Shown one piece after another: positions 17,772-62,252 of a stretch of 64,000 nucleotides of DNA (position 1 is its first letter; the number at the start of each line of letters is the position of its first letter). Source of the DNA: Candidatus Yanofskybacteria bacterium RIFCSPLOWO2_02_FULL_41_13 (lineage in GTDB: Bacteria; Patescibacteriota; Minisyncoccia; 2-02-FULL-40-12; GWA2-44-9); the NCBI GenBank assembly GCA_001795735.1, contig MGKQ01000001.1:14808-78807 (forward strand), given 5' to 3'. The notes beneath the pieces were generated by a model. The model was given only the letters and a program-made list of their open reading frames with translations, was not told where the DNA came from and ran no database searches. The translations under genes were made by a program, and so were the position numbers.

Positions 17772-17851
17772 ATCCCGTTAGAGGTCCGACTTGCCTAGAA
17801 GGCATGGTCAGCAGATGCACCACCAAGGGCGCATCTTACCTCTAACGGGAT
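17772..17851. mobile_element. divergent member of the CCCGTTAGA terminal-inverted-repeat element family (MITE-like or structured small RNA)
   Basis: 14-bp perfect IRs ATCCCGTTAGAGGT / ACCTCTAACGGGAT enclosing 52 nt with internal hairpins. TIR sequence is related to the elements at 51486 and 61162. Confidence 0.5.
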
Positions 17852-23645: not shown

Positions 23646-23669
23646 TGCATAGTGGGTGTTTCTGCAATT

Positions 23670-24752: not shown

Positions 24753-24788
24753 ACAAAAGTATAAACAATCTGTTGTTAATAACCTAAC

Positions 24789-24817: not shown

Positions 24818-24843
24818 TCAAATAGTTATTCTTCTGATCAACC

Positions 24844-46862: not shown

Positions 46863-46871
46863 CCCAGTATA

Positions 46872-47183
46872 TCAACTTCCAGAGCCAAACGCTTTGGTGC
46901 GTCTGTACTCTTTAAGCCTTAGACTTAAAAATATCCTACCCCTTGTCGTTTTAAGATAACCTTCTCTGCGTTTGGCATCTTGCTCATTAGTACAGCCTTC
47001 AAAATATATTAGCTTGAATGGTAACCTGAACTTTGTACTGAAATTGAAGCCTTTATTATGTTCATCTATTCTTCTGCGCAGGTTATTTGTGTAACCAATG
47101 TATAACCTATCGTCCTTGATACTTTGTAGCACATAGATATAGAAGAACATGCTGGAAGCTGTATTACTGGGCATGTGATTCAT
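46872..47183 (-). CDS. GIY-YIG domain small protein
   Basis: FFYIYVLQS...LYIGYTNNLRRRIDEHNKG. Confidence 0.75.
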   Translation of the reverse strand: MNHMPSNTASSMFFYIYVLQSIKDDRLYIGYTNNLRRRIDEHNKGFNFSTKFRLPFKLIYFEGCTNEQDAKRREGYLKTTRGRIFLSLRLKEYRRTKAFGSGS

Positions 47184-48033
47184 TTAGTAAAGTTAGTTCT
47201 TCCTCCCAATTATAATTTCCCCAATTTTTATATTTTTTTCTTAGTTCATCGTTCTCATGTCCGGGATGACAACCAAGTTCTATAATTTTATCTGGATATT
47301 TTTTCAATAACTCTTTTGCTGACTTGATGTCTCTATCGCTCAAATTTCCGGCATTAACAAAACCGACGGAAAAATCGTTGCAAACAAGGCCAGCCTTTCT
47401 TACTTTTCTTTTTGCTATCGCCGACAAAAAGTTTAGAAACAACAGTTGAAGTTTTCTAAATAATTTGCCACCCAAAAAGCTAAACGGTTCATTTACGATA
47501 CGAATGTATGGAATCTGGCGTTCCTTGGCCAGCTTAACAACAATTTCTGTAATTCCCGGTAGCAGATGTAAATGCTGATGGCTATTTATGAAAGATAGTT
47601 TGATACCGGCTTGAATGCACTTATTTAACTGAGCCCTTAGTTCCGCCTCCACTTTTTTGAGACTAATTAATCCTAAAATATATTTGATGAAAAATATCCT
47701 GTGGTTTTTAGGAAAAACGGTCTGAGTAATGGGTCTCTCCTCAACCAAAACCAGATGTATCCCGTACGAAGTCTCGCTCGCGCTAAGAGCACGAGTCCTT
47801 TGGACCTCGGCGAGGCTACTTCGTACGGGATGAACCCCGATGTTTGGAAGTTCAACTTCCAAACATCGGTGGACGGCATCATCAAAAGCCGGACCATTAG
47901 CCATCAGAGAGGCACCGTCTATCTTGGCTCCTTTTAATAAAAAAATGATTCCATCGTTAATGGATTTGTTAAGACCGAGATCGTCAGCAATAATCCTCAA
48001 GTTACCAATTCCCAAGTTACGACTTACAATCAA
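47164..48033 (-). CDS. YdjC/ChbG-family carbohydrate deacetylase (NaxD/HpnK-like)
   Basis: N-terminal IIADDLGLNKSINDGI and overall YdjC-like pattern. TTG start. Confidence 0.65.
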   Translation of the reverse strand: MIVSRNLGIGNLRIIADDLGLNKSINDGIIFLLKGAKIDGASLMANGPAFDDAVHRCLEVELPNIGVHPVRSSLAEVQRTRALSASETSYGIHLVLVEERPITQTVFPKNHRIFFIKYILGLISLKKVEAELRAQLNKCIQAGIKLSFINSHQHLHLLPGITEIVVKLAKERQIPYIRIVNEPFSFLGGKLFRKLQLLFLNFLSAIAKRKVRKAGLVCNDFSVGFVNAGNLSDRDIKSAKELLKKYPDKIIELGCHPGHENDELRKKYKNWGNYNWEEELTLLNESHAQ

Positions 48034-48061
48034 TTCCAGATTTACAATGTTTCAAAAGTTT

Positions 48062-48089
48062 GAAAATTGAAAATTGAAAATTGAAAATT
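48062..48089. repeat. heptanucleotide tandem repeat (GAAAATT)x4 in the spacer between the GT2 stop and the deacetylase start
   Basis: Seen in sequence. The last unit overlaps the GT2 stop codon. Confidence 0.8.
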
Positions 48090-49107: not shown

Positions 49108-50760
49108 TCATATTCTTGAACAGTCAAAAATATAAGACTCTATTTTTTTATCCTGAAACTTTTTTAATAGAGGGCACTTCGAAATCACCGGCCAGTAGCG
49201 TCCGTTTTTATCTATGGCCGGAAAATCAACAATCATATACTGACCCTGATAGGCATTTATCCTCTCACTATAATCGCGCGTCGGAGCAGTATAAAATCTA
49301 GCATTATATTTGCCGTTTAATTTTAAATAGTAAGCCCCGATATCGTAATAAGTTATAACTTCCTTAACGGAATTACTGGAATTAACATATTGGATCGTTT
49401 CTTTCGCCACCTTGTCTACGCTGCCGTTTAGAGGGCCGGATAAATATTCAGCCGAAAAAAGGATGTTATATACGACTCCAAAAACAATGAATGCAGCTAA
49501 AAATAAACTTCTCCTATTCTTCACGAATAGTGCTCCGGCCAAAGATACAACGGAAATTAACCAAGTCAAAATTATAAAAATAGCCGAAAAGTAAAATCCT
49601 GAAGGGCCGGAACCGCCAGTAAAAGGAATTAGAAAACTGAGATCTAAAGACTTAACTCTGTCTAAGTAGGCCGTCTTCGGATTCAGAGGCAAGACATCAT
49701 GGGGCAAAGACAGGATAAAATAAGAGATGAGAATAAAAGCAGCCGCAACTACAATGTAAATATTTCTACTAATTGCCTGTTTTTTTAGAAGATCGGTTAT
49801 TACCTGAGCACTTATAAGAACCGAGGGAACTATCCAAAACATGAAATATCTCTCTATCGTAAGAGTGGCAAAATCAAATAAAATGAGATAAAAAATTAAG
49901 TTAATAAATAAATATATAAACCATATCCTATATCTTCTTAATACATCCCTCATAAAGACTCCGCACAAAACGGGCAGAAGCAAAAATGGCGAAAGCCAGA
50001 CTAAAGATTTGAAAATTTTAAAGACTAAGTCGAAATAGGCTCTTGATCCGAAATTAAAGCTTTTAAAGTGGCCGGCATACTCAACGACCATTTCCATGCG
50101 AGTGGCATAAAAATAATAGAATGCCGCGAAAACGGCTAAAAGTACCGCCAGCCACGGCCATAATTTGTGAACAGTCTTTCTAAGCCCGCCGCCATCTTTG
50201 GAACCGTAAAATTTTATTGCCTGATCAACGATCAGCGCTCCGATAAATAATAAGAAGCTCAGCTTGGTCAGAAATCCACCAATTATAGCTAGTCCGAATA
50301 AAACGAACCACCGTTTTTCTCTTCGTCCCTTTTCTGAAATATGCAGAAAAGAATAATAGGCAAGTAATATAAAAAATGGCAAAAAAGCACCATCTATGTC
50401 TATCTGTAAATTAGCTATCAGGCTATAAATATTAACTGTGAAAAGTCCGGCCGCAATCAATGCAACCCCTTTACTCTGCGTAGCCTTCAGAGAAATTATA
50501 TAAATTAAAATTAAATTAAAAAAGCTAAACAAAAATGGAACAATTCTCAAATAATCTAATCCGAAGATGCGTCCGGCAAATTTATAAGCAAACTCCGATA
50601 AGGGCGGGTGCGGACTTTCCAGGTTGCCAAAAAAAGGATTGGCAATACTTGCCCATCTATATTCGTCTTGATGATAGATCTGATCAAAACCCAGAAACCT
50701 GGAGACAACAAAAAAAACAACCAAACCCACAAGCAATAAAGTATATTTATCAAATCTCAT
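49108..50760 (-). CDS. ArnT/PMT-like (GT39/GT83-type) polytopic membrane glycosyltransferase
   Basis: More than 10 predicted TM helices. First-loop YHQDEYRWASIA motif (DE) typical of PMT_2/ArnT. Confidence 0.65.
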   Translation of the reverse strand: MRFDKYTLLLVGLVVFFVVSRFLGFDQIYHQDEYRWASIANPFFGNLESPHPPLSEFAYKFAGRIFGLDYLRIVPFLFSFFNLILIYIISLKATQSKGVALIAAGLFTVNIYSLIANLQIDIDGAFLPFFILLAYYSFLHISEKGRREKRWFVLFGLAIIGGFLTKLSFLLFIGALIVDQAIKFYGSKDGGGLRKTVHKLWPWLAVLLAVFAAFYYFYATRMEMVVEYAGHFKSFNFGSRAYFDLVFKIFKSLVWLSPFLLLPVLCGVFMRDVLRRYRIWFIYLFINLIFYLILFDFATLTIERYFMFWIVPSVLISAQVITDLLKKQAISRNIYIVVAAAFILISYFILSLPHDVLPLNPKTAYLDRVKSLDLSFLIPFTGGSGPSGFYFSAIFIILTWLISVVSLAGALFVKNRRSLFLAAFIVFGVVYNILFSAEYLSGPLNGSVDKVAKETIQYVNSSNSVKEVITYYDIGAYYLKLNGKYNARFYTAPTRDYSERINAYQGQYMIVDFPAIDKNGRYWPVISKCPLLKKFQDKKIESYIFDCSRI

Positions 50761-51490
50761 TTTTCTGAATTACCATTAATATAGAGATGCCAAAAGAAAA
50801 ATTCATGAACTTTAGAAAATAGGTTTCTAGGTTAAAGATGGCATAAAATAAACTGTTTAGAGAAGGGTTATTAATTTCAAAATCAGATTCTCTGGCCTTC
50901 AGTTTAAGCAGTCTAGATAATAGCCTGACTGCAACAATTGGCAAAAATAAAAAGGTGTTAAAGTAGGTTTTTCTTAATATTTTAAGGTTGGGATTTTTAT
51001 TTATAACTGCCGACAATGACTCGGCCGTATACCGCCTGAAGTGGTGGGCAACCTCATCCTGAACCCCCCAAAGCCACTGATATGCCGGAACAGCTATAAT
51101 CAGTCTGCCACCCGGCTTTAAGGCCCTTTCTATGGCCCTAATTGCCCCCAAATCGTCCTCTATATGCTCAATAACATCCAAGGTCATTATGAGGTCAAAA
51201 CCGCCCTCTGGAGCCCTAATTTCGCTATTATTAACGACCTCTAAATTACGGATGCCCCGAGATCTGCCAAACTCAATAGCCTCAGCCGAGATATCGGCTC
51301 CGGATGCATTGAAGCCAAGCCTTTGCAAGAAACCAACGTTATATCCTGAGCCACAGCCAAAATCAAAAATTTTTGCCGTTTTCGGTATTTTATACTTTTT
51401 TATTAATGCCAGAATAACTTTTCTCCTGACCCTAAACCACCAGTGACTACCCTCTGTCTCAAAATATGTTTTATAAAAATTCTTATCCAT
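50750..51490 (-). CDS. class I SAM methyltransferase
   Basis: IFDFGCGSGYN. Start codon ATG (MDKNF) lies at the junction with the repeat element. The ORF-track start 51514 is a GTG inside the element. Confidence 0.7.
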   Translation of the reverse strand: MDKNFYKTYFETEGSHWWFRVRRKVILALIKKYKIPKTAKIFDFGCGSGYNVGFLQRLGFNASGADISAEAIEFGRSRGIRNLEVVNNSEIRAPEGGFDLIMTLDVIEHIEDDLGAIRAIERALKPGGRLIIAVPAYQWLWGVQDEVAHHFRRYTAESLSAVINKNPNLKILRKTYFNTFLFLPIVAVRLLSRLLKLKARESDFEINNPSLNSLFYAIFNLETYFLKFMNFSFGISILMVIQKNEI

Positions 51491-51610
51491 CCCGCTTAGA
51501 AGTAGTGCAAGCACCCACTACCACCATATGATGCCGCACACTATTAATTATTGACTGATATTCATATCATTTAACCCGTTTAGAGTACTTCTAACGGGAT
51601 TCATTTATTC
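51486..51610. mobile_element. roughly 125-bp terminal-inverted-repeat element, copy A (MITE-like)
   Basis: Ends CATCCCGCTTAGAAGTAG ... GTACTTCTAACGGGATTCAT. Near-identical to copy B at 61162. Overlaps the last codons of gene 51591..52541 and the start of the MTase gene. Confidence 0.65.
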
Positions 51611-52541
51611 TTTTTCTTGCCATATCAATCCCGTAAGCAAACATTTCATGGCGGCGAGGGCTGGTATAATGTTTCATAACCATATTATCACCGAGAAAAC
51701 CTTTAATTGCATACCTCTCCGTTGATAGGAATTTATAATTTACTTGGGCAAAAAGACAAGTCCATCCCTCCATCTCAATAAAATAATCGTTAAGGGGTCT
51801 TTTTGTATGTTCTAAATACTCCGAAAACTGACTGACAGTAAATTTATCTTTATTGATTACTATGTAACCGCCATTTAGCAAAGCCGCTTTATTTTCTTTG
51901 AGATTATACTTCTGAGTATAAAAGTCATCCATTTGCAGAAAAAAGTCCAGCTCATCGCCAATATGACGCTGAACCATGGCGTCATAATCGGTTTTTCCTG
52001 AAATAAAATCTACTACTTCTGTCGGTTCCTTATAATAAAGTATGTCTGAATCGCTGGCTATTACTTTTTTTGCCTTGCTAAAAACAATTATATTGGTCAG
52101 CTTATCGAAAAAAAAGTGGCATTCCAGTCTTGATTTTTTGATAATCTCGGGAATGCCGGGCATTTCTAAAATACGTTTAGTGGTCTCGTCTCGAAACATT
52201 ACTTTAACATTCGGGAACTTGCTTAGAATTAATTTTTCTGTGGCCTTGTCTATCGTCCCATCATCGTGAATAACCACAACCGGTTTTAGTTTTGAGTGAA
52301 AAAGGAAAGACCTAAGCATCCAAGCGAACATCCAAAGACCCTGGCCGTGCCTTGAGCAAATAGTGTGGAGCTCAAAATCAGGATCGGGAACATAATCAAA
52401 ACAAGGCAAGCGGGAAAATAAATAATTGCCGAAAAATCTGTTTTTAAAATACGGCCACCAATAGCGCGGACCGTATCCTCTCTCAATTAGATGCTTAAGA
52501 TAAAACAGTTCTACTTTTATTCTTTTAAAGTTTTTAACCAT
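51591..52541 (-). CDS. hypothetical protein, possibly GT-A-like glycosyltransferase (DxD)
   Basis: VVVIHDDGTID...SDSD. No family recognised with confidence. Confidence 0.35.
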   Translation of the reverse strand: MVKNFKRIKVELFYLKHLIERGYGPRYWWPYFKNRFFGNYLFSRLPCFDYVPDPDFELHTICSRHGQGLWMFAWMLRSFLFHSKLKPVVVIHDDGTIDKATEKLILSKFPNVKVMFRDETTKRILEMPGIPEIIKKSRLECHFFFDKLTNIIVFSKAKKVIASDSDILYYKEPTEVVDFISGKTDYDAMVQRHIGDELDFFLQMDDFYTQKYNLKENKAALLNGGYIVINKDKFTVSQFSEYLEHTKRPLNDYFIEMEGWTCLFAQVNYKFLSTERYAIKGFLGDNMVMKHYTSPRRHEMFAYGIDMARKRINESR

Positions 52542-52545
52542 TGGA

Positions 52546-53001
52546 TTAACTTTTCATAATATATCCCCACTTAGATTCGAGAAAATGACGCTGTTCTTCA
52601 ATGATATTGTCGGGTAAAGATTTGAATATCTTTATTTCTGACGAATCCTCATTCGGTTTCATTAAAGTAGCTTCTGCCAAGCACAAAAAGACCAAACCCA
52701 CGCTAAAGCCGAATCCTCTTTCTTTCTCTTCACTATCATAATCAATATACCCAAGCAGTTCTCGGATGCTAACCTCAATTCCAAGCTCTTCAGCCGCCAC
52801 CCTTTTTACTGCATCCGTAACTTTCTCTTTGTAAAAAACAGTTCCGCCAGGAATATGCCATTTGCCGCGATATGAAGGTAATTTTCTCAATGAAAGAATA
52901 ACGCCTTCAGGAGTTTTCACGACTAGCTCAACGCAAAGACGAGGTACTCTGGAATAAATATTTTTAAACTCCTCGTGCGAAAACGGCTTATTATTGCCCA
53001 T
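52546..53001 (-). CDS. NUDIX hydrolase
   Basis: Nudix box GGTVFYKEKVTDAVKRVAAEELGIEV. Confidence 0.8.
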   Translation of the reverse strand: MGNNKPFSHEEFKNIYSRVPRLCVELVVKTPEGVILSLRKLPSYRGKWHIPGGTVFYKEKVTDAVKRVAAEELGIEVSIRELLGYIDYDSEEKERGFGFSVGLVFLCLAEATLMKPNEDSSEIKIFKSLPDNIIEEQRHFLESKWGYIMKS

Positions 53002-53057
53002 GGTTATTAGAATTTAGACTTATTAATACTAGGATATTCGGCTAAATTTGGCAATAA

Positions 53058-53082
53058 AAAACGCCCTTGTGGCGTTTTAAAA
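53058..53082 (-). terminator. rho-independent terminator (minus strand) after the DegT-like gene
   Basis: AAAACGCC / GGCGTTTT stem. Confidence 0.5.
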
Positions 53083-53084
53083 AG

Positions 53085-54305
53085 TTAAACTTTTCGTAAA
53101 TAATCCGTTACGACATCCATAACGTAGCCTAAGTGTTCTTGGCGCAATCCGTGATGACAACCGATAAGAAGTCCCTGAGCCATAATCATATCAGAATTAA
53201 CCAAATCACCATAAACACGGTGGTTAATATTCTTATAGGGCGGATGTCGCAGAATGTTTCCCGCAAACAGCACCCTCGTCTGAATGTTTTTTCCTTCCAT
53301 ATAGAGCATCAATTCGGTTCGTTTTATCGATGAATCTTCGCGGATAGTAAACGGGAATGCCAGCCAGCGAACATCACTTTTAGTGACGGCCTGACGAGGT
53401 AATACAAAGTGTTCCGGAAAGCCGGCAAAAAAATCGTATAGAACCTTGAAATTTCTCTTACGAATCTGATCGAACTCGCTCAAGCGTGATAGCTGGACAA
53501 GTCCAAACGCAGCTTGAGGATCCAGGGCCTTGAAATTAAAACCAAGCTCACGAAAAACAAACTTACCATCATACTGAATATCATTCAAAAAGAAATTAAA
53601 GCGAATATCGGGATGCTCATCATAATATTCCGCCGAGGCTCTACCCCAGTCTCTAACGATCTGGGTAAAATCAGCATCGGCCTTATTCTTGAACATTACC
53701 ATCCCCCCGCCGCCCATTGCTGTAATTATGTGAGAGGCATAGAAACTGGTCGTACTGGCATCTGCATATTTACCTGTCGGCTCGCCTCTAATCGTACCGC
53801 CGATCGAATCACAGCTGTCCTCTATCAGCACCAAATTATGATCGTCGGCCATCCGACGCAATTCAGCCATATCATTAAGATTGCCTATCAGGTGGGGTAT
53901 CATCAAACCAACCGTATCGGAATCAATCGCCCCCTCAACAAGATTCAAATCCACATTATATGTATCCGGCTCAACATCAACAAAAACCGGGATGAGTCCC
54001 GATTCAATCAGGGGATTAACAGTTGTGGCAAAAGTGCAAGCCGGAGTTATTACCTTACCGCCCCGAACCTTGCCCAAGAGCGCTCTTATGGCAAGTAGAT
54101 TTGCCGAAGAACCTGAATTGACGAATAGCGCAAAGTTCTGGCCAAAAATTTCAGCCACCTGTTTTTCAAACGTTTTGGTATATCTGCCGATGCCCAGCCA
54201 ATCGTTGTTTAAGCACTCCAGAACGGAGGCTATCTCTCTCTCTCCGAAGATTGCTCGACTGTAATAAACCTTGTCTTTTCCGGGTACAAATGGATGGTTT
54301 TCCAA
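53085..54305 (-). CDS. DegT/DnrJ/EryC1-family PLP/PMP enzyme with His at the canonical Lys position (second 3-dehydratase-like protein)
   Basis: TTSFYASHIITAMGGGG, where aminotransferases have SF..K...GEGG. Confidence 0.7.
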   Translation of the reverse strand: MENHPFVPGKDKVYYSRAIFGEREIASVLECLNNDWLGIGRYTKTFEKQVAEIFGQNFALFVNSGSSANLLAIRALLGKVRGGKVITPACTFATTVNPLIESGLIPVFVDVEPDTYNVDLNLVEGAIDSDTVGLMIPHLIGNLNDMAELRRMADDHNLVLIEDSCDSIGGTIRGEPTGKYADASTTSFYASHIITAMGGGGMVMFKNKADADFTQIVRDWGRASAEYYDEHPDIRFNFFLNDIQYDGKFVFRELGFNFKALDPQAAFGLVQLSRLSEFDQIRKRNFKVLYDFFAGFPEHFVLPRQAVTKSDVRWLAFPFTIREDSSIKRTELMLYMEGKNIQTRVLFAGNILRHPPYKNINHRVYGDLVNSDMIMAQGLLIGCHHGLRQEHLGYVMDVVTDYLRKV

Positions 54306-54437
54306 GATACTCCTTATTTTTTATATGTGCTAGTTAATAGTGTTACAATGTCTTCGGCAACTTTGCAATATTGACTCATAGCTTTTTTTATAGTACAGAT
54401 ATGAGCAAGCTGTTCCTTTATAACTCAAGGGGCGAGA

Positions 54438-56294
54438 ATGAAACTGACAGACTATCTAGCTCAGTATTTAGCTGATTTGGGTATTAAAAAAGTTTTCCTT
54501 ATCACCGGTGGAGCTTGCGCTCATATTGTAGATTCGCTTGGAAAAAATCCAAATATCGACTACGTCTGCATGCAACATGAACAGGCTGCCGCAATGGCCG
54601 CGGATGCCTATGCTCGAGTAACCAAAAATATAGGAGTTGCCGTCGCAACTTCCGGTCCGGGAGCAACTAATCTCATAACCGGTGTTTGCTGTTCTTATTT
54701 TGATTCAATTCCAACGCTGATGATAACCGGTCAGGTAAACTTGTGGGAAACTAAGGGTGAAAGAAAAATACGACAATTCGGATTCCAAGAAACCGATATC
54801 GTTGATATCGTCCAGCCGATAACTAAATTTGCCGAAATAGTTAAAGATCCTGATAATATAAAATATTTGCTTGATAAGGCTGTTTATATTGCCAAATCAG
54901 AAAGACCGGGTCCTGTCTGGCTGGATATTCCGATGAATGTTCAGCATGCCGAGATTGAGCCGGATCGGCTTATAGGTTTTGATCCTGAAATTTATCACGA
55001 ACATGATGAGCCGCCGTTACAGAAATACACGGACTTAACTTCATACGATATGTGGGGTATTTTAGGCAAGCTAAAAAAATCAAAAAGACCCATAATTATC
55101 GCCGGCTCTGGAATAAAATTAGGTCGAGCCGAAAATGAATTTCTAAAAACGCTGAGTGTGCTAAAAATCCCTGTCGTATCAACTTGGAGCGGAATTGATA
55201 TTCTGCCCCACGATCATGAACTATATATCGGTCAATTTGGCGTCTATGGAAACAGGGCGGCTAACTTTGCTGTTCAAAATTCAGATTTACTTCTGAGCCT
55301 GGGCTCACGTCTTGATACGCGTCAAACTGGCGGTCAGCCTAAAACATTTGCCAGAGAAGCATTTAAGATCGTAGTCGATATTGACAAAACAGAGCTAGAC
55401 AAGCAATGGGTAATAGCCGATATGCCGATAAATGCTGATGTAAATGATTTTCTTACGAAACTAAATATTTTTGTTTCTTATTCTGATGACCACCTTCCAA
55501 ATTTTTCAGATTGGCATTCAATCTGTCTAAACTGGAAACAAAAATATCCGGCCGTTCTTCCCGAATACTATCAGCAGGAAGGATCAGTTAACTCTTATGT
55601 TTTTATTAAAGCATTGTCGGAAAAACTTCCCCCGAACTCGATAATTATCCCTGATCAGGGTGGTAACCTAACTTGGACAATCCAAGGATTTAAAGTAAAA
55701 AGTGGCCATCGATTATTCTCGGCTTTCGGCAACTCGCCGATGGGCTATGCCATGCCGGCATCAATCGGAGCCGCTTTCGCCGATCCTACAGCAAATATAA
55801 TTTGTATCGACGGAGACGGTGGGTTCCAGATGAACATCCAAGACCTTCAGACGATCAGACACTATAACCTGCCAATAAAAATGTTCATTCTTAATAATAA
55901 TTCTTACGGAATTATTAAACAATTCCAGGAAGTTTATTTTGAGGGACGCTATGAAGCTACTGTCAAAGAAACTGGCTATACTGCTCCCGATTTTGTAAAA
56001 GTTGCTCAAGCCTATGGAATTGTAGCAGAAACTATTAGAGATCACTCTGGGATTGATCAAAAACTAGATAGAGTGCTCGCATTCGAAGGACCTATTATAT
56101 GCGACGTAAGATTAGATGAATCACAGAAACTAGTACCCAAACTTGTGGCCATAAAAACGGCTGACGGGAAATATATCAGTAAGCCGATTGAAGATATGAT
56201 TCCCCTGTTGCCCAGAGATGAGTTCAAAGAAAACATGATTGTAAAACCGCTTGAAGAGAATGACGGCACCAAAAAACCGTCGGAGATAAACTAA
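54438..56294 (+). CDS. ThDP-dependent acetolactate-synthase-like enzyme (IlvB/YerE-like large subunit)
   Basis: N-terminal ThDP-pyrimidine domain, central domain, C-terminal GDGGFQMNIQDLQT...NN ThDP motif. Confidence 0.8.
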   Translation: MKLTDYLAQYLADLGIKKVFLITGGACAHIVDSLGKNPNIDYVCMQHEQAAAMAADAYARVTKNIGVAVATSGPGATNLITGVCCSYFDSIPTLMITGQVNLWETKGERKIRQFGFQETDIVDIVQPITKFAEIVKDPDNIKYLLDKAVYIAKSERPGPVWLDIPMNVQHAEIEPDRLIGFDPEIYHEHDEPPLQKYTDLTSYDMWGILGKLKKSKRPIIIAGSGIKLGRAENEFLKTLSVLKIPVVSTWSGIDILPHDHELYIGQFGVYGNRAANFAVQNSDLLLSLGSRLDTRQTGGQPKTFAREAFKIVVDIDKTELDKQWVIADMPINADVNDFLTKLNIFVSYSDDHLPNFSDWHSICLNWKQKYPAVLPEYYQQEGSVNSYVFIKALSEKLPPNSIIIPDQGGNLTWTIQGFKVKSGHRLFSAFGNSPMGYAMPASIGAAFADPTANIICIDGDGGFQMNIQDLQTIRHYNLPIKMFILNNNSYGIIKQFQEVYFEGRYEATVKETGYTAPDFVKVAQAYGIVAETIRDHSGIDQKLDRVLAFEGPIICDVRLDESQKLVPKLVAIKTADGKYISKPIEDMIPLLPRDEFKENMIVKPLEENDGTKKPSEIN

Positions 56295-57298
56295 TGGAAT
56301 ATATGTATGGACTGCATAGTCACACTTGGGATTCGATAGAAATTGAAGACGCCAAGAAATTAATTGGCCCTATTCTGATACTTGGCGCATCTGGATTTAT
56401 TGGCGCCAAACTTTTTTTCAATTTAAGCCAGTGTCGCAATGATATCTTCGGATGTTCTAGAGACATTAAGAACAGCTGGAGATTCAAGTATCATAATTGG
56501 CAGAATCTGGAGAGTCTTGATATCACGAACTATAAAGAAGTTGAGCGTTTATCTAAGAGAATCAGGCCGAAAACCATTTTTAATTTATCTTCTTACGGAG
56601 GACATAGCCATCAGACGGATATCGAACAAATCCATCAGGTTAACTATATCGGAGCAACTAACATACTGAGGGCCATAGCCGATATAGAGTACGGTGCTTT
56701 TATACAGGCGGGCAGTTCATCTGAATACGGTTTGAATTCTGCCGGTCCAAAGGAAGATGCTAAACTGGTACCAAATAGTGCTTACGCCGAATCTAAGGTT
56801 AAGTCATATTACATGGTAAATTACTATGGCCAAGCCATGTTTCCGGTAATGCACTTGAGGCTATATTCTATTTACGGACCCTGGCAGGAAAGAAAAACAC
56901 TAATGCCCGTACTGATATCCCACTGTCTAGAAAATAAATGGCCTCCGCTTGTGGACAAAGAAGCTTCACATGACTTTGTCTATGTAGACGATTGTGCCTA
57001 TGCTTTCGTAAAAGCCGCCCTGGCTCTGTACGAAAAGAAGGGCTTCGGAAAAGCCGTAAATATAGCTACTGGAGTAAAAACAAAGACAGAAGATTTAGTA
57101 AAAATATCCCAAAGAATATTTGGTGTTACTTCAGAACCGATATTCGGCTCCATGCTAAATGAGGGACGGGACCTTGTGAACTGGTATGGGAATCCTGAAT
57201 TGGCTCTAAAAGAGCTCAGCTGGTATCCCAGAGTCGGACTGAACCAAGGCATTGAATTAACAAGCCGATGGGAACAAGAATTTAAAAAGACCGCATGA
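56294..57298 (+). CDS. NAD-dependent epimerase/dehydratase (extended SDR)
   Basis: ILILGASGFIGAKLF. Confidence 0.7.
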   Translation: MEYMYGLHSHTWDSIEIEDAKKLIGPILILGASGFIGAKLFFNLSQCRNDIFGCSRDIKNSWRFKYHNWQNLESLDITNYKEVERLSKRIRPKTIFNLSSYGGHSHQTDIEQIHQVNYIGATNILRAIADIEYGAFIQAGSSSEYGLNSAGPKEDAKLVPNSAYAESKVKSYYMVNYYGQAMFPVMHLRLYSIYGPWQERKTLMPVLISHCLENKWPPLVDKEASHDFVYVDDCAYAFVKAALALYEKKGFGKAVNIATGVKTKTEDLVKISQRIFGVTSEPIFGSMLNEGRDLVNWYGNPELALKELSWYPRVGLNQGIELTSRWEQEFKKTA

Positions 57299-57312
57299 GC
57301 GGTTTTTTATTT
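57288..57312 (+). terminator. weak rho-independent terminator
   Basis: ACCGC / GCGGT short stem with TTTTTTATTTTT. Confidence 0.35.
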
Positions 57313-57356
57313 TTGAATTGATTTATGCAAAAATATATGACAGGATATAAAAATAT

Positions 57357-58226
57357 ATGACTGAATTTGAAAAACTTATTCACGAATATTCATTTTTTTA
57401 CGACAAGGGTTTATTCTCCCAAAAAACCTCAAAGCTAGAACAGCGCTACCGGGAATACTTGAACTTGGAAAATCTTGCTTCAACCAAAGAAACAGCCCAG
57501 CTTATAGCTAAAGTGGCTAACCGACACCTTAAGAAAACCGGTCCCATAGATGCACTCGAGATTGGCTCCGGCATCGGCGGCCTGGCAGTCGCCATGGCAC
57601 GCCTTGGAAATCGCCATGTTACCGGCATTGAACCTGAAGCGCCGGCAGTCAAAGCTTCATCGCTTCGCGCTCAAAAGTACAAAAATATTAAGGCAGAATT
57701 TATACAAGGATACGGAGAAAAAATACCATTGCCGGATAGATCGTTTGATCTAGCCTATACTCAATCCGTCCTCGAACATGTAACAGACATTCAAAAAGTT
57801 ATATCCGAAGCATACCGTGTTTTACGGCCCGGAGGAGTAATTTACATTGAAACGCCAAATTATCTTTGGCCGGTGGAACAGCATTACAAAACTTTCTTCC
57901 CCCCCCTTCTCCTAAAACCGCTGGCACGCCTTTACCTAAGACTGCGAAAGAAGAATCCCGATGGCATTAACACCCTCAACTACGTCACGCCGATAAATAT
58001 CCGCCGATATCTCAAAAAGGCCGGTTTTATAAACATTACCGATAACACCTTGGAAGAATACGCCGGAAAGCTGAATGACCTTTCACGCATTAAACACAGG
58101 AGATACCTGCGGGTCCTTCTTAAAATCCCCCTCGCCTCTTCTATAATCAGCGGCGTAATTCATTCATTACTCAAACTTGGATTGTATCCGGGACTAAAAA
58201 TGAGTGCGCAGAAGAACATCATTTAA
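57357..58226 (+). CDS. class I SAM methyltransferase
   Basis: ALEIGSGIGGLAVAMA. Confidence 0.7.
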   Translation: MTEFEKLIHEYSFFYDKGLFSQKTSKLEQRYREYLNLENLASTKETAQLIAKVANRHLKKTGPIDALEIGSGIGGLAVAMARLGNRHVTGIEPEAPAVKASSLRAQKYKNIKAEFIQGYGEKIPLPDRSFDLAYTQSVLEHVTDIQKVISEAYRVLRPGGVIYIETPNYLWPVEQHYKTFFPPLLLKPLARLYLRLRKKNPDGINTLNYVTPINIRRYLKKAGFINITDNTLEEYAGKLNDLSRIKHRRYLRVLLKIPLASSIISGVIHSLLKLGLYPGLKMSAQKNII

Positions 58227-59371
58227 ACAAAAGACAATATATTCTTGACTCTGCGCTCCCAGGTATAATTCTTAACATCCTCCATGGCTTTTTTGGAAAG
58301 TTGAAAGCCCAAGTCGGGTTCACTTAATATTCTGCCTATCCCCCGGTCTAAATCGCCAGGTTTATTCGGGTTAACTAAAATTGAGTTTTGATCATTAAGG
58401 ACTTCTGCGATCGATGGTAAATTGCTCGCGACAATCGGACAGCCTGACGCCATGTATTCAAAAAGCTTAACCGGCGAAGTATTTAGATAAACCTTATCTT
58501 TAGCCGAATTAGGCAATGTCAGAACATCGGCCGCTTTTAGATAAACCGGAATTTCTTTATGCGATTTGTGACCTAAGATCAAAACGTTTTTCAACCCCCT
58601 CGCTTTTTCCCTAAATTTCTTGATATCATAGTCCATCCCCCCGACAAAAATAAATAACACAGCATCTCTTTCTTGGAAATTGGAAACTAGAAATTGGAAA
58701 TTCCTTGCTGTTTCCAACAAGGAATAAACTCCCTTCCACTCGAATAAGTGACCTGTGTACATGACTATCTTTGAATCTTGGGACAGACTTAACTTCTTTC
58801 GTGCTTCCTCCTTTGATATCTGTATATCAAATTCGTTCATATCAACACCGTCATGAGCAACTAAAACGTTATCAGCCGAAAAGCCGATATTTAAAAACTT
58901 GCCCCTGAGGCTTTCCGAAATAGTAACTACTTTTAAATTCCTGGCCAGAAATCTTCTGTAAAAAAATATTCTGGCATCAGAAAAATTATGAGCCTCAAAA
59001 ACAATTTTTTTATTGAAGAAGCTTAGAAAATATAACGGCCACTCGTCGCGGGAATAAATAATATCGGCTTTTTGGACAACGGCGTAAAAAGAAAGAAGCA
59101 GGGCAGATATAACTCCCTTAATGTTGACTGCAATTTTATCAAGCCGACCGGAAAAATAAAAATCCGGTGCCCATATTCTTTTTATCTTAAAATTTGTTCT
59201 GACGGAATAGTATGAGCAGAGCTCATCTCTGATGTGATTGTCTCTGAAAGGATACAGTAGAGTCACCTCAAGACCCTGCAATGCAAAAGTTTCGCACATC
59301 TTAGCAATTTGGACACCATATGCTTTTTCTGTCGGCAACCTTAAATTAGCAATAAATAAAAGTTCTCTCAC
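58223..59371 (-). CDS. GT4 glycosyltransferase containing an in-frame heptamer repeat tract
   Basis: GT4 C-terminal EYMASGCPIVASN. Tract TTGGAAA-TTGGAAA-CTAGAAA-TTGGAAA at 58673-58700 encodes NFQFLVSNFQ. Confidence 0.75.
   Translation of the reverse strand: MRELLFIANLRLPTEKAYGVQIAKMCETFALQGLEVTLLYPFRDNHIRDELCSYYSVRTNFKIKRIWAPDFYFSGRLDKIAVNIKGVISALLLSFYAVVQKADIIYSRDEWPLYFLSFFNKKIVFEAHNFSDARIFFYRRFLARNLKVVTISESLRGKFLNIGFSADNVLVAHDGVDMNEFDIQISKEEARKKLSLSQDSKIVMYTGHLFEWKGVYSLLETARNFQFLVSNFQERDAVLFIFVGGMDYDIKKFREKARGLKNVLILGHKSHKEIPVYLKAADVLTLPNSAKDKVYLNTSPVKLFEYMASGCPIVASNLPSIAEVLNDQNSILVNPNKPGDLDRGIGRILSEPDLGFQLSKKAMEDVKNYTWERRVKNILSFV
58673..58702. repeat. imperfect heptanucleotide tandem repeat (TTGGAAA family, 4 units) inside the GT4 coding sequence
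   Basis: Seen in sequence. Confidence 0.8.
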
Positions 59372-60067
59372 TTATTTGTAGTTAGACCTGGAAAACTTCC
59401 TAACTAACGGCTTGACTAGCTCTTTAATAAACCGAGGCGGTTTTATGTATATTGAAGATGTGACCATATTTTTAAGAGACAAAGTATACAAACTTTCAAC
59501 TGCATCTTTCAAGGAGCTTCTCCTGCATTTTGTGGCAAAGAGTATGTTATCTATAAAGCCTGCGTTTCTAAATTTCCTGGATCTAAGTATGTATCTTGAG
59601 ACGACTTTCCTTACATCGGGATAATTAAACGTTGCATCATGATATGCAATAATTCCGCCTTCTCTCAAATAAGGCTCCCAAAGCAGAAAATCAGTTTCGG
59701 CCATTTTATAAGTATGATCGCCGTCAATCCAGAGAAAATCAACCGGTTTATTCCAGTTCTTGCTGGCCTCCTCTGATGTTGCAACCACAACCTCAACAAA
59801 CCCATCAACATTATGTTTATTCAGGTTGCTCTTAAGCTGACCTAGGGCCAAATCGTCAAAATATTGAGGATCTATAGCGTAAACCCTTCCTTTTTTATCT
59901 GAATTCTTCAGAGCATCGGCCAATACCACGGTTGAGCGGCCATAAAGACTGCCTATTTCTACTATCGTGCCGCCGTTTTTACGAACAACATCATACAAAA
60001 AATCAGCCTCTCTCTTAGAAAGAAAGCCTGGGATATCATTTAAAATACGGTCCAGATCTTTTGCCAT
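59372..60067 (-). CDS. class I SAM methyltransferase (CmcI/O-MT family-3-like)
   Basis: TIVEIGSLYGRST...WIDGDH pattern. Confidence 0.6.
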   Translation of the reverse strand: MAKDLDRILNDIPGFLSKREADFLYDVVRKNGGTIVEIGSLYGRSTVVLADALKNSDKKGRVYAIDPQYFDDLALGQLKSNLNKHNVDGFVEVVVATSEEASKNWNKPVDFLWIDGDHTYKMAETDFLLWEPYLREGGIIAYHDATFNYPDVRKVVSRYILRSRKFRNAGFIDNILFATKCRRSSLKDAVESLYTLSLKNMVTSSIYIKPPRFIKELVKPLVRKFSRSNYK

Positions 60068-60122
60068 ACTTTTTAGGTTATACCATTTCCGCTAAAAAAC
60101 AAACCGGCAGTATATAACAAAT

Positions 60123-60932
60123 TTATATTTTTTGAGCCACGACTAATATCTCAAAGCCAAAATGCTTTGAGATATATCTGTTTGATATAGAATCTAATAA
60201 TCTAACACTCACGTCTAGTATCTTTGCCGCAAACTTCATAAATTTAGGGTGATACCGAGAAAGACAATATGCAACGAAAAATCCGTCAGTAGCCAAAACT
60301 TTACAATTAGATGCCTTCGCAAGATCTTTTAATTCTTTGATCTTGAAAGATTTTTCAAAACCATATTCATAGTTTTTGCCCTTGATCATCTTAAATAATT
60401 TATGCGGGTTCCAGTAATTATTTACTGATACAATTAAAATTCCGTTTTTCCTCAACATTTGTGCCATAACTGCAAAAGCCCTTCTATAATCTTTTAGGTG
60501 CTGTATCGTTGCATCGGAAAAAACTATATCAAATTGTCCATCCTGAAATGGTAGATTAAAAACATCCGCTTGTTTAAATTCAACATTAGCTATATTTAAA
60601 TGAGCGGCAAGCCCTTTTGCCACTGCAAGTGACTCCTCCAGAATATCCGTTAGCACAAACTTGGATTCCGGAAAATCTCGAGCCAGTGCGATGCCATATC
60701 TCCCCGTACCTGTTCCGATATCAAGGAAACTAAACTTTTTAGAAGGTACATATTTCTTTATTATCGGATATCCTCTGACGAATAGCTGATTTTTAAGAAT
60801 TTTATCAACCTTGCTAAGACGAGCCTGTTTATCCCAGACATTGCTCCAGATAGTATTAATTGATTTTTGAGGTTTTGTATTTTCCATCTCAGTCATTAAT
60901 AAGAGAAGCATAGATCTCAATCTGCTTATCAA
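60123..60932 (-). CDS. class I SAM methyltransferase
   Basis: FLDIGTGTGRYGIALA...DIVFS. Confidence 0.7.
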   Translation of the reverse strand: MISRLRSMLLLLMTEMENTKPQKSINTIWSNVWDKQARLSKVDKILKNQLFVRGYPIIKKYVPSKKFSFLDIGTGTGRYGIALARDFPESKFVLTDILEESLAVAKGLAAHLNIANVEFKQADVFNLPFQDGQFDIVFSDATIQHLKDYRRAFAVMAQMLRKNGILIVSVNNYWNPHKLFKMIKGKNYEYGFEKSFKIKELKDLAKASNCKVLATDGFFVAYCLSRYHPKFMKFAAKILDVSVRLLDSISNRYISKHFGFEILVVAQKI

Positions 60933-62252
60933 TTAAAACTTTAGAATTATACTTTTCTTCCACCAATTTCCTGCCGTTTGCCCCTAATTCAGTTAAAAGC
61001 TCTGGATGGTCTATTAAGTATAATATCTTTTCGGCCAGCGCTCTAAAATCGCCCTCGTTTACAAGGAATCCGTTATAGCCATCCCCCACCTGATCAGGAA
61101 GACCGCTGTGTCTTGTAGTAATGACAGGCAACCCGGTAGCTAAAGCTTGTGAAATAATTACATTCATCCCGTTAGAAGTAGTGCAAGGCACCCACTACCA
61201 CCGTACGGTGCCATACATTACTAATTATTGTTTGATTGACATTCATGTTATTTAACCCGCTTAGAGTACTTCTAACGGGATTCATATTATTCAGTATCTC
61301 CATCCTTGGCCGTTTTTGACGGCTGAACAAAGAAGCTCATATTCTGGAAAAAATCTAATATCCGTTCTATTGCCATAAATCCTTTAAACTCCACAACGTC
61401 ATTCAAGCCCAATGTTCCCGCTAAAGAATGGATTTTTTCTCTCAACGGCCCGTCTCCAATCATATAGCACCTGAATTTTTTTGAGGTCTTTTCTTTGACA
61501 ATGGCCAGAGCGCGCAAGAGGTCGTCAAAACCTTTTTTCTCCACAAATCTGCCGACCGAAACAATATTTATTTCTTTATTCTCGGATATCGCCCTCTCCT
61601 TAAAATTATAGTTATCCAAGTTTATGCCAATGGGATGAACCAGTACTTTTTCTGAAGAAAATCCGTGTCCTACTACCCTTCGCTTCATGTCCTCAGACAT
61701 AACGAAGAACAAAGCTGATTCTTCTATTAATCCCCGATAGATAGCAATCCCTTTTTCTTTTATTCTTTTACTGACATCCTGGCCGTAAAGTGAAGTGATA
61801 AATTTTTCCTTAATACCCAAAACTTTTTTTATCATGACAAAGTTAGACCCGACATTGCCAAAGTGACAATGATACAAATCGTATTTTTTACCGAAAAAAG
61901 GCTTTAAATCCCAGAACAAAACTTTAAAATTAGATGCAATTTTAAAAATAGATGCCGGCCTATAGAGTAACAGTCTGACTAACCGAGGTCCAGCCATAAT
62001 AATTCTCAGTATTTTGTTAGCCGGAACGCTAAGATACATTGTCTTTTTGTCTAACCCGTATTGAAAATACCTCTTGGATATATGGTCCTTGTTCGCCCCG
62101 CCTCGATTAAAGGCGTAAATCTCAACCCCGACCCCCCGGTCGATCAGATCACAAGCCTGATCAATAATAAAAGTTTCGGATATTTCCGGAAAACTGCCTA
62201 CAATAAAGGCGACTCTTAAGTTTTGCTTTTTATTTATATTAACTGAACTCAT
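60889..62252 (-). pseudogene. GT4 glycosyltransferase split into an N-terminal fragment (61287..62252) and a C-terminal fragment (60889..61167) by insertion of the roughly 125-bp repeat element
   Basis: N-fragment ends ...FVQPSKTAKDGDTE-stop. C-fragment resumes GMNVIISQALATGLPVITT. Together they rebuild the conserved GT4 E-G-x-G...EAMA-G-PVI core. Confidence 0.55.
61162..61292. mobile_element. roughly 125-bp terminal-inverted-repeat element, copy B (MITE-like), inserted in a GT4 gene
   Basis: Aligns end to end with copy A (TCATCCCGTTAGAAGTAGTGCAAGGCACCCACTACCACC ... TTTAACCCGCTTAGAGTACTTCTAACGGGATTCAT). Contains the 12-bp perfect palindrome CACCGTACGGTG. Confidence 0.65.

Follow-up and report, generated by a model that had tools for sequence, protein, structure and literature searches.

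Short ORF-less repeats in a Candidatus Yanofskybacteria contig: very probable members of a miniature mobile element family that targets start codons and has a GIY-YIG nuclease form

The stand-alone, Slx1-like GIY-YIG proteins of the UPF0213 group (BH0048, EF2693, E. coli YhbQ; COG2827) represent the minimal GIY-YIG variant, and the same study reports a GIY-YIG domain recently inserted into an HsdR gene (Dunin-Horkawicz et al. 2006, PMC1564403). The searchable literature treats them as repair proteins or as proteins of unknown function, and none was found described there as the cargo of a start-codon element that is bounded by terminal inverted repeats (TIRs) and makes a duplication. By its sequence the 95-aa protein described below belongs to this group. 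The phage T4 segA-G genes and the I-TevI relatives have the GIY-YIG catalytic domain in common with the ORF-bearing relatives of our elements and with a cassette in the analyzed DNA, whereas the short copies A, B, and C are ORF-less. The Seg and I-TevI proteins, however, have DNA-binding domains where the 95-aa nuclease is a catalytic domain only, they act at one cognate site via double-strand-break repair whereas the start-codon elements sit at many unrelated loci, and they come without the TIRs and the 2-bp duplication of these elements. For these reasons a free-standing homing endonuclease gene was rejected as an identity for the element.

The Correia elements (NEMIS) of Neisseria resemble the present family in having TIRs, a length of about 100–150 bp, a location near gene starts, and co-transcribed hairpins which alter the expression of neighboring genes. 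They differ in their TA duplication, their 26-bp TIRs of unrelated sequence, and their restriction to one genus; moreover no cognate enzyme is known for them, and they do not restore a start codon. The Rickettsia palindromic elements are likewise small, palindromic, and found in frame inside genes, as is our copy D with its 25 codons, but they are of unrelated sequence and have neither a known ORF-bearing form nor a preference for start codons. Classical MITEs of insertion sequences (e.g., the IS630/Tc1 type with TA duplication) share the TIRs, the short duplication, the small ORF-less body, and an ORF-bearing relative with the same ends. Here, however, this relative measures only about 280 bp, its product is a GIY-YIG nuclease and no transposase of the DDE, HUH, or serine/tyrosine type, insertion is directed to a start codon, and the element keeps a fixed orientation relative to the host gene.

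The window, i.e., the whole 64-kb stretch of DNA that was analyzed, contains four ORF-less copies (A to D). These copies and the genes next to A and B are as follows.

17772..17851: copy C, 80 bp, intergenic, GC-rich interior, flanked by TG on both sides
47759..47831: copy D, 73 bp, relative with variant TIRs (ATCCCGTACGAAGT...ACTTCGTACGGGAT)
50750..51490, minus strand: gene for a SAM-dependent methyltransferase, its ATG made by the 3′ end of copy A
51489..51600, minus strand: copy A, ORF-less, 112 bp, between the methyltransferase gene and a 316-aa ORF
51591..52541, minus strand: 316-aa ORF on the upstream side of copy A, ending within the 5′ arm (last codons NESR and stop)
60889..61167, minus strand: GT4 C-fragment gene, 92 aa (MNVIISQALATGLPV...)
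61166..61281, minus strand: copy B, ORF-less, 116 bp (ATCCCGTTAGAAGTA...TACTTCTAACGGGAT), on the start codon of the GT4 C-fragment gene
61172..61285, minus strand: short ORF in copy B from the original host ATG (MNPVRSTLSGLNNMNVNQTIISNVWHRTVVVGALHYF and stop), translated by eye; an ORF end in the same frame is listed at 61172
61282..61283: right copy of the 2-bp duplication of B (TC on the plus strand, GA on the coding strand), the left copy being 61164-61165
61287..62252, minus strand: GT4 N-fragment gene, 321 aa

The initial annotation had described A and B as a repeat that aligns end to end in the same orientation with about 85% identity. This was confirmed, with identity in 111 of 132 columns (84%) over the spans marked there and in 99 of 117 columns (85%) over the elements proper. 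The TIRs of 14–15 bp (ATCCCG(C)TTAGAAGTA / TACTTCTAACGGGAT) and the GC-rich palindrome CACCGTACGGTG within copy B are present as claimed, as are the perfect 14-bp TIRs of copy C (ATCCCGTTAGAGGT), which has a terminator-like hairpin (17737-17761) on one side and a -35/-10 match starting at 17851 on the other; copy D had been missed. Perfect 14-nt inverted-repeat pairs within 130 nt number 12 in the window and 0–2 in 20 shuffles, and as single strands A, B, and C fold more stably than shuffled sequences (z -3.1 to -7.3). Read on the minus strand, A and B both finish with ...CGGGATG, whose ATG opens the downstream ORF as had been proposed. The claim that the other end supplies or abuts a stop codon also proved correct: the ORF upstream of A stops at a TAG inside the 5′ arm of A, and the ORF upstream of B at a TAA one base ahead of the ATGAAT at the 5′ end of B. 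A, B, and C are 80–116 bp long, and the short ORFs within A (18 codons) and B (37 codons, both translated by eye) are unlike each other. The short ORF of B ends at a TAA inside the 3′ arm, 4 nt ahead of the rebuilt ATG. An exact 21-mer gave no match in the two large sequence collections searched.

Copy B lies, as stated initially, exactly between two halves of a GT4 glycosyltransferase: the fragments match positions 11–102 and 107–171 of the Pfam profile Glycos_transf_1, and the C-fragment continues the alignment with the unsplit homologue P0053. The further claim, namely that the insertion of B had split the gene, has to be abandoned. The same split point is seen in homologues with 45–61% identity from several CPR lineages, and among the matches listed most homologues above about 46% identity are N-fragments of about 301–331 aa that cover about 75% of the fused query. 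We read four of these junctions. In three (L138, L139, and L141) the gap from stop to ATG is only 4–5 nt and contains no element; the fourth (L135) has a different insert at the same split point. The GT4 fission is therefore older than the element, and copy B is ruled out as its cause. The empty junctions of L139 and L141 match the flanks of copy B: the empty site in L141 reads GAATAAAATTATGAATGTAATTATTTCACAGGC, and the window reads GAATAATATGA, element, GAATGTAATTATTTCACAAGC, with TC on both sides of B. Judged by this comparison of filled and empty sites, copy B is an insertion on the start codon of a pre-existing GT4 C-fragment gene.

These junctions also bear on the possibility that A, B, and C are conventional MITEs derived from an insertion sequence with an ordinary transposase, one of which interrupted an intact GT4 gene. 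The TIRs, the small size, the several copies, and the position of B would be in keeping with such an origin, but the split is common to the homologues, a larger element with these TIRs did not turn up in about 1 Mb of related loci, where every candidate pair proved spurious, and the only ORF ever found between these TIRs encodes a 95-aa GIY-YIG nuclease. We regard this origin as very unlikely. The description as MITE-like thus holds for the small size, the lack of an ORF, the TIRs, and the marks of insertion, and fails for a derivation from an insertion sequence.

Further copies were found at many unrelated loci. The pattern ATCCCGTTAGA-N64-94-TCTAACGGGAT matches at least 120 stretches in species-representative genomes, about 2 being expected by chance according to our estimate from database size and pattern length. 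Nearly all data come from MAGs and metagenome contigs. The hosts are mostly CPR bacteria with some Omnitrophota, Planctomycetota, and WOR-3. From the first to the last base of the pattern the lengths cluster at 90–119 nt, mostly 100–109 nt (about 105 bp), and copies can be crowded, with four in L038 and five in L043 within 8 kb. Perfect inverted repeats are most often 14 bp long, made up of the conserved 11-nt core ATCCCGTTAGA and three covarying positions: at positions 12–14, 90–96% of copies are complementary, all four pair types being represented, and chance level is reached from position 17. The interiors, in contrast to the ends, are unconserved and barely structured (mean z -0.7), except that one ORF-less subfamily has a conserved inner arm 2 (ACCCTAACGGG) and an inner CCACC..GGTGG hairpin.

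At the insertion sites the two flanking dinucleotides are identical in 107 of 135 copies, compared with 12 and 8 in shifted controls, and the rarer pairs CC, GG, AA, TT, GT, TG, and CA are matched as well. Copy A, with GA and GG, has one mismatch. T occupies position -3 in 126 and A position +3 in 119 of the 135 copies. The sites can be described as A-T-N-N-A(-T), overwhelmingly ATGAA(T/A) at gene starts, with the central dinucleotide duplicated. The evidence for the duplication is limited in that it comprises only 2 bp and that selection for ATG is a confounder for GA, its commonest value. An ORF with a minimum of 60 codons begins with the terminal AT plus G in 112 of 136 copies, the element sitting exactly on that ATG, which supports the earlier suggestion that the element rebuilds translational signals. 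The short ORF from the old ATG ends at a UAA at -7 in 22 copies and at an overlapping UGA in 12, and it is fused in frame to the host protein in none. The element is strictly oriented like the host gene. For a transposon with symmetric TIRs this is not expected unless selection purges the other orientation, and the conservation of the 11 nt across phyla could instead reflect a function at the level of the host.

Several of these properties would suit a purely cis-acting RNA device, i.e., a coupling hairpin, an RNase III site, or an attenuator that is conserved by its function and is immobile. The stem pairs two start regions, the orientation to the gene is consistent, stops are present in two frames of the 3′ arm with no in-frame fusions, and in Omnitrophota, Planctomycetota, and phage copies a GGAGG lies within an extension of the 3′ arm, 8–10 nt ahead of the ATG. 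Against immobility stand the matched flanking dinucleotides including the rare ones, the empty orthologous site, the tandem copies in L062 with one common ATTCAT, and the nuclease-bearing form. Copy C is intergenic, and copy D with its 2-bp duplication amounts to 75 nt and forms an in-frame insertion of 25 codons in an ORF of the YdjC family, visible as IGVH[PVRSS...ETSYGIH]LVL in the alignment with PDB sequences. Furthermore the interiors lack conservation, and the covariance models of Rfam gave no match in the window and only tRNA and RNase P in 17 related loci. An immobile RNA device is thus highly improbable, but a role of the RNA may well coexist with mobility.

The same pattern with a spacer of N248-278 matches at least 120 metagenome stretches with length modes of 279 and 282 bp (279–282 bp). 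A GIY-YIG motif is present in 99 of them, and in 62 the frame is intact from the host ATG. Nearly the whole of this long form is taken up by one 95-aa ORF (MNPVRD...SLTG). The ORF starts with the host ATG and continues with codons of the 5′ TIR (M-N-P-V-R), and its end L-T-G-TGA lies in the 3′ TIR, so that the stop overlaps the rebuilt host ATG (ATGA); of the 68 ORFs with at least 80 codons in the frame of the host ATG, 59 stop at such a TGA. An ATG codon stands at the 3′ end in 92 of 99, 79 of 89 are followed by a host ORF, and 71 of 99 retain an intact duplication. A protein search matched 4792 clusters, a length of 95 aa being shared by nearly all of the best 120; among 14 sequences read, 10 start with MNPVR, two with one-residue variants (MSPVR and MNPAR), and 13 end with SLTG. 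The protein is a single PF01541 domain, the only Pfam family matched, and catalytic-type residues are conserved in the GIY-YIG proteins. The nearest solved structures are UPF0213 proteins BH0048 (1zg2, profile E = 3e-12) and EF2693 (1ywl, 1e-7), followed by SLX1.

The nuclease form has the same 11-nt ends as A, B, and C, and both forms agree in target, duplication, and orientation. From the duplication, the empty site, the further copies, and this ORF-bearing form together we conclude that A, B, and C, and D with them, very probably belong, as MITE-like members without an ORF, to a very large family of miniature mobile elements that targets start codons and has a GIY-YIG form. This family is apparently very widespread and undescribed; in the searchable literature we found no description of a start-codon GIY-YIG element family.

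Between the interiors of A and B and the GIY-YIG ORF no homology is detectable, and an ORF-bearing copy with TIRs of the A/B type was found neither in the window nor elsewhere. Their status as deletion derivatives is therefore unproven, and A and B could be independent hairpin elements that have only their ends in common. In a stronger form of this idea the hairpin elements (about 45–116 bp) came first as REP-like or structured intergenic sequences, and the GIY-YIG gene is a later invader of the homing endonuclease type that seeks out the hairpin and settles within it, in which case A, B, and C would not derive from the nuclease form. The inner features of the ORF-less subfamily would fit, SLX1, a structure-specific nuclease, is among the nearest solved relatives, and short forms are present in viral contigs, which yielded no ORF-bearing form. 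However, the TIRs themselves encode both ends of the nuclease ORF (MNPVR and LTG with the stop), and apart from a few bases the ORF takes up the whole element at a very tightly kept length, which a single co-evolved unit explains better than an invader; the identical insertion habits of the two forms also speak against it. We therefore consider this order of events unlikely.

For the preferred family of mobile elements, the sequences lead us to infer that the GIY-YIG nuclease is the mobilising enzyme. The GIY-YIG enzymes I-TevI and Eco29kI leave 2-nt 3′ overhangs, which fits the 2-bp duplication. The nuclease would cut the target and the element ends with a 2-nt stagger and so move the element, and ORF-less copies would be moved in trans. 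Since the element begins and ends with AT, its insertion acts on the host ATG in two ways: the original ATG and its upstream signals now open the reading frame of the element, and the last AT of the element with the duplicated G becomes a new ATG for the host gene, which could then be translated by termination–reinitiation at the ATGA overlap. ORF-less copies keep the same ends; their ORF from the old ATG stops at or before the UAA or UGA of the 3′ arm, and the host gene would be translationally coupled to it.

GIY-YIG is not a recognised transposase class. We put forward tentatively, as a serious possibility, that the 279–282-bp form is a new class of autonomous DNA transposon whose sole protein, the 95-aa GIY-YIG nuclease, serves as a transposase cutting at ATNNAT, and that A, B, and C are its MITEs. 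It would then be, to our knowledge, the smallest autonomous DNA transposon. If so, excision would restore the site and insertion would re-create target sites at both junctions, the takeover of the host start codon would secure both the expression and the harmlessness of the element, and past insertions might underlie gene fissions like that of the split GT4.

Hairpins with variable interiors and conserved ends are also known as integron attC sites, as PATEs derived from IS200/IS605, and as REPINs moved by RAYT (Y1) enzymes. The hairpin here is strong, GTTAGA and TCTAAC resemble the attC core boxes, and a weak Y1_Tnp fragment lies about 10 kb outside the window (L001:275-466). The order of the boxes, however, is GTTAGA...TCTAAC on either strand, the reverse of RYYYAAC...GTTRRRY, and cassette arrays are absent, copies in the window being spaced by 10–34 kb. 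The IS200/IS605 and REP systems make no duplication and have no true TIRs, in contrast to the TIRs and the variable duplicated dinucleotide seen here. We attach practically no probability to a site of these known kinds.

An ORF-bearing relative is present in the window itself, between the YdjC-family gene and a GT gene.

46861..47179, minus strand: ORF-bearing cassette of a sister subtype, with a 103-aa GIY-YIG ORF at 46872-47183 (Pfam PF01541, E = 2.6e-17)

The cassette has GA on both flanks and an imperfect 20-bp inverted repeat, and its 3′ end ...CTGGGAT forms the downstream ATG with the following G. Its protein shares 46% identity with the MNPVR family. In L140, a MAG of another Yanofskybacteria member, a GIY-YIG ORF enclosed by the TIRs sits at the start of the GT N-fragment, and a second copy, identical over the bases available, is found at the start of the C-fragment, i.e., at the site of copy B.

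The three repeat sequences A, B and C which the initial annotation had reported were all recovered at their positions, and a relaxed scan added a fourth relative, copy D. They are listed here together with a GIY-YIG cassette of a sister subtype.

Elements in the window
51489-51600, flanking genes all on the minus strand: copy A, 112 bp
61166-61281, flanking genes all on the minus strand: copy B, 116 bp
17772-17851: copy C, perfect 14-bp ends ATCCCGTTAGAGGT
47759-47831: copy D, variant end ATCCCGTACGAAGT
46861-47179, minus strand: GIY-YIG cassette, ORF 46872-47183 (103 aa, PF01541)

Over the spans 51486-51610 and 61162-61292, as first annotated, 111 of 132 columns are identical (84%) when copies A and B are aligned in the same orientation; for the elements proper the identity is 85%. 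Their inverted ends are ATCCCG(C)TTAGAAGTA / TACTTCTAACGGGAT, and on the minus strand both read ...ATGA followed by ATCCCGTTAGA at the start and TCTAACGGGAT followed by G at the end. The interior of copy C is GC-rich and unrelated to that of A and B. In BLAST searches the interiors of A, B and C had no significant similarity to other copies; D alone found a match, a 73-nt relative in opposite orientation (locus L075, 1500-1572). Perfect 14-nt inverted-repeat pairs within 130 nt occur 12 times in the window and 0-2 times in shuffled sequences. RNA folding, a check proposed in the initial annotation, showed that the single strands of the elements fold better than shuffles (z -3.1 to -7.3). No Rfam family matched in the window, and none matched the elements in 17 related loci. 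The flanking dinucleotides are TC/TC for B, TG/TG for C and GA/GA for the cassette, with one mismatch each for A and for D.

The exact 21-mer TTAGAGTACTTCTAACGGGAT, which is specific for A and B, gave no match in large genome-contig and metagenome-contig collections, and the A/B subtype is therefore rare in them. The wider count of copies was made with the conserved 11-nt ends. With short gaps the pattern ATCCCGTTAGA-N-TCTAACGGGAT is present at seven places in six viral contigs, and with gaps of 64-94 nt in at least 120 further stretches of species-representative genomes from several phyla, as against about two expected by chance as estimated from database size. Among the matches listed for these gaps the hosts are mostly Patescibacteria (CPR; Saccharibacteria, Parcubacteria and others), the remainder including Omnitrophota, Planctomycetota (Sedimentisphaerales) and WOR-3, and the total length clusters at about 100-110 nt even though 86-116 nt were permitted. 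Some genomes carry 4-5 copies per 8-kb locus, and in locus L062 two tandem copies have one ATTCAT in common. The terminal inverted repeat (TIR) is 14 bp long with the outer 11 nt fixed. Its positions 12-14 are complementary in 90-96% of the copies listed, with all four pair types, and from position 17 onward complementarity is at chance level. The interiors of the family show no positional conservation and only slight structure (mean z -0.7).

In 107 of the 135 copies listed the dinucleotide outside ATCCCG...CGGGAT is identical on both sides, compared with 12 and 8 in shifted controls, the elements being left unoriented in this statistic. The matched pairs include minority ones (CC, GG, AA, TT, GT, TG, CA), and one position further out there is a T on the left in 126/135 and an A on the right in 119/135 of these copies. 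This is a 2-bp target duplication at a T-NN-A or, more loosely, AT-NN-AT site. An attC site was rejected because the box order is wrong, and IS200/IS605 elements and REPINs were rejected because of the duplication. About 10 kb past the right end of the window, a 63-aa ORF (L001, 275-466) has a weak Pfam match to Y1_Tnp (IS200-like); no link between this ORF and the elements was found.

Copy B lies between two gene fragments of a GT4 glycosyltransferase (GT), the N-fragment at 61287..62252 (minus strand, 321 aa) and the C-fragment at 60889..61167 (minus strand, 92 aa). The proposal that both derive from one GT4 holds, as they match Pfam profile positions 11-102 and 107-171 and align continuously with the unsplit 423-aa homologue P0053 (43% identity, E = 3e-46). 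The proposal that copy B had split the gene must be given up, since homologues are split too and the site without the element, which the initial annotation had suggested looking for, is found in three relatives.

GT4 junction in the window and in related loci
L138: stop-ATTT-ATG; empty
L139: GAATAA-ATGAT-ATGAATGTAATA; empty
L141: GAATAA-AATT-ATGAATGTAATTATTTCACAGGC; empty
Window: GAATAA-T-ATGA(116 bp)GAATGTAATTATTTCACAAGC; copy B present
L135, L136: 75-aa GIY-YIG ORF with a different 16-bp inverted repeat
L140: CCCGTTAGA-type GIY-YIG element

In a search with the fused GT4 protein, N-fragments of about 301-331 aa again made up most of the homologues listed at more than about 46% identity (range 45-61%), and these come from several CPR lineages. 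The exact 321-aa N-fragment is also present in Rifle aquifer assemblies including GCA_001794375.1; one source lists it as a protein of Candidatus Yanofskybacteria, which places the organism in the CPR/Patescibacteria. From the relatives with an empty site it follows that the fission is old and conserved and that copy B was inserted later on the start codon of the existing C-fragment gene. The annotation is corrected accordingly: the split GT4 is an old two-gene arrangement and not a pseudogene made by the element. The enzyme is WcaL-like, and its fission into about 320 aa and about 92 aa is conserved across several CPR lineages. The stop/start junction is a repeated landing site for elements; the GIY-YIG insert of L135 is without CCCGTTAGA ends. 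A conventional IS-derived MITE that split the GT4 is contradicted by the split in relatives without the element, and also by a search of about 1 Mb of related loci for a larger autonomous element with the same TIRs, which gave only spurious one-mismatch pairs. RNA splicing was rejected as well, since no choice of boundary restores the GT frame and the gene is split in relatives without the element.

The position of the elements relative to genes is highly regular. In 112 of the 136 copies listed the last AT of the element together with the flanking G forms the ATG of an ORF of at least 60 codons. This agrees with the earlier suggestion that the left junction supplies the ATG of the downstream gene, and the last ATG of both A and B indeed opens the downstream ORF. 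The opposite flank ends in ATGA in most copies, so that a short ORF (M-N-P-V-R...) begins at the old ATG. Where this short ORF stops differs among the copies listed: somewhere in the interior, at the 3′-arm UAA (22 copies), or at a UGA that overlaps the new ATG (12 copies). In-frame fusion of the short ORF to the host ORF, i.e., the gene at whose start codon the element sits, was never observed, whereas about 17 cases are expected under random frames. Copies from Omnitrophota, Planctomycetota and phages carry a GGAGG in an extension of the 3′ arm, 8-10 nt before the ATG. The excess on start codons and the fixed orientation may be due to two factors together, the ATG contained in the preferred target and selection acting on all other insertions.

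A form with a nuclease gene was found at the GT4 junction of L140, from another Yanofskybacteria MAG (GT 59% identical). The junction reads ...GCATGA followed by ATCCCGTTAGAGCCAATATGTGCTACTATATTTATGTATTACAA... and continues into a GIY-YIG N-terminus, where the contig ends; 1.2 kb upstream the start codon of the N-fragment gene is occupied by a full 260-bp copy that has the same ends and a frameshifted ORF. At a spacing of 248-278 nt these ends are present in at least 120 metagenome stretches, with length modes of 279 and 282 bp among the matches listed, and in none of the viral contigs. The GIY-YIG motif is present in 99 of the listed matches, each time on the same strand as the host gene downstream; in 62 the ORF is unbroken from the host ATG onward, as in MNPVRD..YYTYVLKS..YTGSTNDLRKRF.QHN..TK..LIYYEAC.NE.DARSRE.YLKSGMGKRYLKNRLKRFLSLTG. 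The ORF fills the element: the 5′ TIR codes for N-P-V-R and the 3′ TIR for L-T-G-stop. Among the listed matches, 59 of 68 ORFs with at least 80 codons in the frame of the host ATG stop at a TGA overlapping the rebuilt ATG, 92/99 elements have ATG as their 3′ codon, the host ORF follows next downstream in 79/89, and the duplication is intact in 71/99.

This nuclease accounts for 4792 clusters in the protein database, and among the best 120 almost every one has a length of 95 aa. Fourteen sequences were read; 10 start with MNPVR and 2 with the variant MSPVR or MNPAR, 13 end with SLTG, and their database names are only 'GIY-YIG nuclease family protein' or 'putative endonuclease'. The 95-aa protein belongs to PF01541 with conserved GIY, YIG, Arg, His and Glu positions. 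By sequence it falls into the Slx1-like/UPF0213 group of prokaryotic stand-alone GIY-YIG proteins, its nearest solved relatives being the UPF0213 proteins 1zg2 and 1ywl, followed by SLX1. We assign the elements in the window, as ORF-less members, to a widespread start-codon-targeting GIY-YIG element family. The mobile nature proposed earlier is supported and much extended by the duplication, the empty site, the many copies and the ORF-bearing form.

Copy D is the sole examined member located inside a gene. Together with the duplication it measures 75 nt or 25 codons and is in frame within a YdjC-family ORF; in the alignment with the solved homologue 7vi8 the insert appears as IGVH(PVRSS...ETSYGIH)LVL with the flanking residues repeated. 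Translational bypass (a gene-60-like hop) was rejected, since a GAA-to-GAA hop in copy B does not land in frame, and covariation of the repeated flank is seen in the DNA and not in the codons. A purely RNA-level device does not explain the data, since it leaves the duplication, the empty site, the in-frame copy and the nuclease form unaccounted for. A short tandem run of TTGRAAA(T) heptamers (48060-48089) immediately precedes the start of the YdjC-family gene, and similar runs are present at 58673-58702 and 63943-63972.

The sister-subtype cassette has the YdjC-family gene on one side and a GT gene on the other. Its 103-aa ORF shows 46% identity to the MNPVR GIY-YIG family, its ends form an imperfect 20-bp inverted repeat (CCCAGTAATACAGCTTCCAG / CTGGAAGTTGATATACTGGG), and its 3′ end ...CTGGGAT plus G provides the ATG of the downstream gene.

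The element is bounded by TIRs, generates a duplication and sits on ATGA(A) start codons with or without a GIY-YIG ORF. Its design lets the host start signals drive its own reading frame and provides the host gene with a new ATG. GIY-YIG enzymes, I-TevI and Eco29kI among them, produce 2-nt overhangs. The nuclease would cut T^NN^A with a 2-nt stagger. Because both junctions and the target have the core AT-NN-A, excision could restore the site and insertions would re-create targets, which would explain the tandem copies. ORF-less copies would be mobilised in trans. For the host gene, translation would begin by termination-reinitiation once the short ORF or the nuclease ORF has been read, and this would presumably also melt the stem. 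A scenario in which the hairpin came first and was invaded by the GIY-YIG gene appears improbable to us.

Known elements that behave in a similar way are Correia elements and RPEs for the ORF-less copies and free-standing homing endonuclease genes for the ORF-bearing form. Dunin-Horkawicz et al. (2006; PMC1564403) present the stand-alone Slx1-like/UPF0213 group as the minimal GIY-YIG variant and report a recent GIY-YIG insertion into an HsdR gene; the passages concerned describe no element with defined ends. When the motif strings were looked up in the literature, only primers and shRNAs came back. Topic searches (MITEs, start codons, CPR, GIY-YIG, transposons, UPF0213) in a literature that mostly excluded subscription journals yielded no account of the element, so an earlier description is possible. 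Within the same coverage we found nothing that matches the combination of TIRs, 2-bp duplication, start-codon target, element-filling nuclease and overlapping ATGA.

If our reading is correct, a GIY-YIG nuclease consisting of the catalytic domain only would join the DDE, HUH and serine/tyrosine enzymes as a type of transposase, and the smallest size of an autonomous mobile element would come down to about 280 bp. An explanation would then be at hand for thousands of so far unexplained CPR genes named 'GIY-YIG nuclease family protein', for many odd leaders of about 100 nt and short ORFs at the starts of CPR genes, by which gene callers are misled, and for assembly breaks at these sites. The rebuilding of start codons would be a clean natural example of a parasite making its insertions near-neutral via translational coupling, and the pair of enzyme and site could be of practical interest.

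Several minor observations were made. Solo 3′ arms (..TTCTAACGGGATGAAA..) without a 5′ arm lie directly before start codons at L045 (~2030-2049) and L087 (~6245-6264); they may be remnants of partly deleted elements. In two viral contigs (L011, 10173-10217; L013, 375-419) a 45-nt member is located between a RiPP-precursor-like 72-aa Cys-rich ORF (...CECECTCTCTCTCTCTCQEQCCSECDCGD) and a 430-aa protein which, judged from its N-terminus CNLKCKYC, is a candidate radical-SAM maturase. Downstream of copy C (17851-17879) a -35 hexamer TTGACA is formed by the last T of the element and the flank, and the reconstructed sequence before insertion (GATTGACA) would hold the same hexamer. The region with copy C is flanked by three collinear inverted repeats (14787-15401 and 19724-20338; 67-116 nt, 70-73% complementarity), which may be inverted paralogous genes. 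Finally, the motif CTTGACAC(C/T)TTTTGACACCTTTTGATAC is repeated at 2780-2813, 23619-23651 and 24782-24821, two of the copies being 91% alike, and may be a shared promoter or operator.
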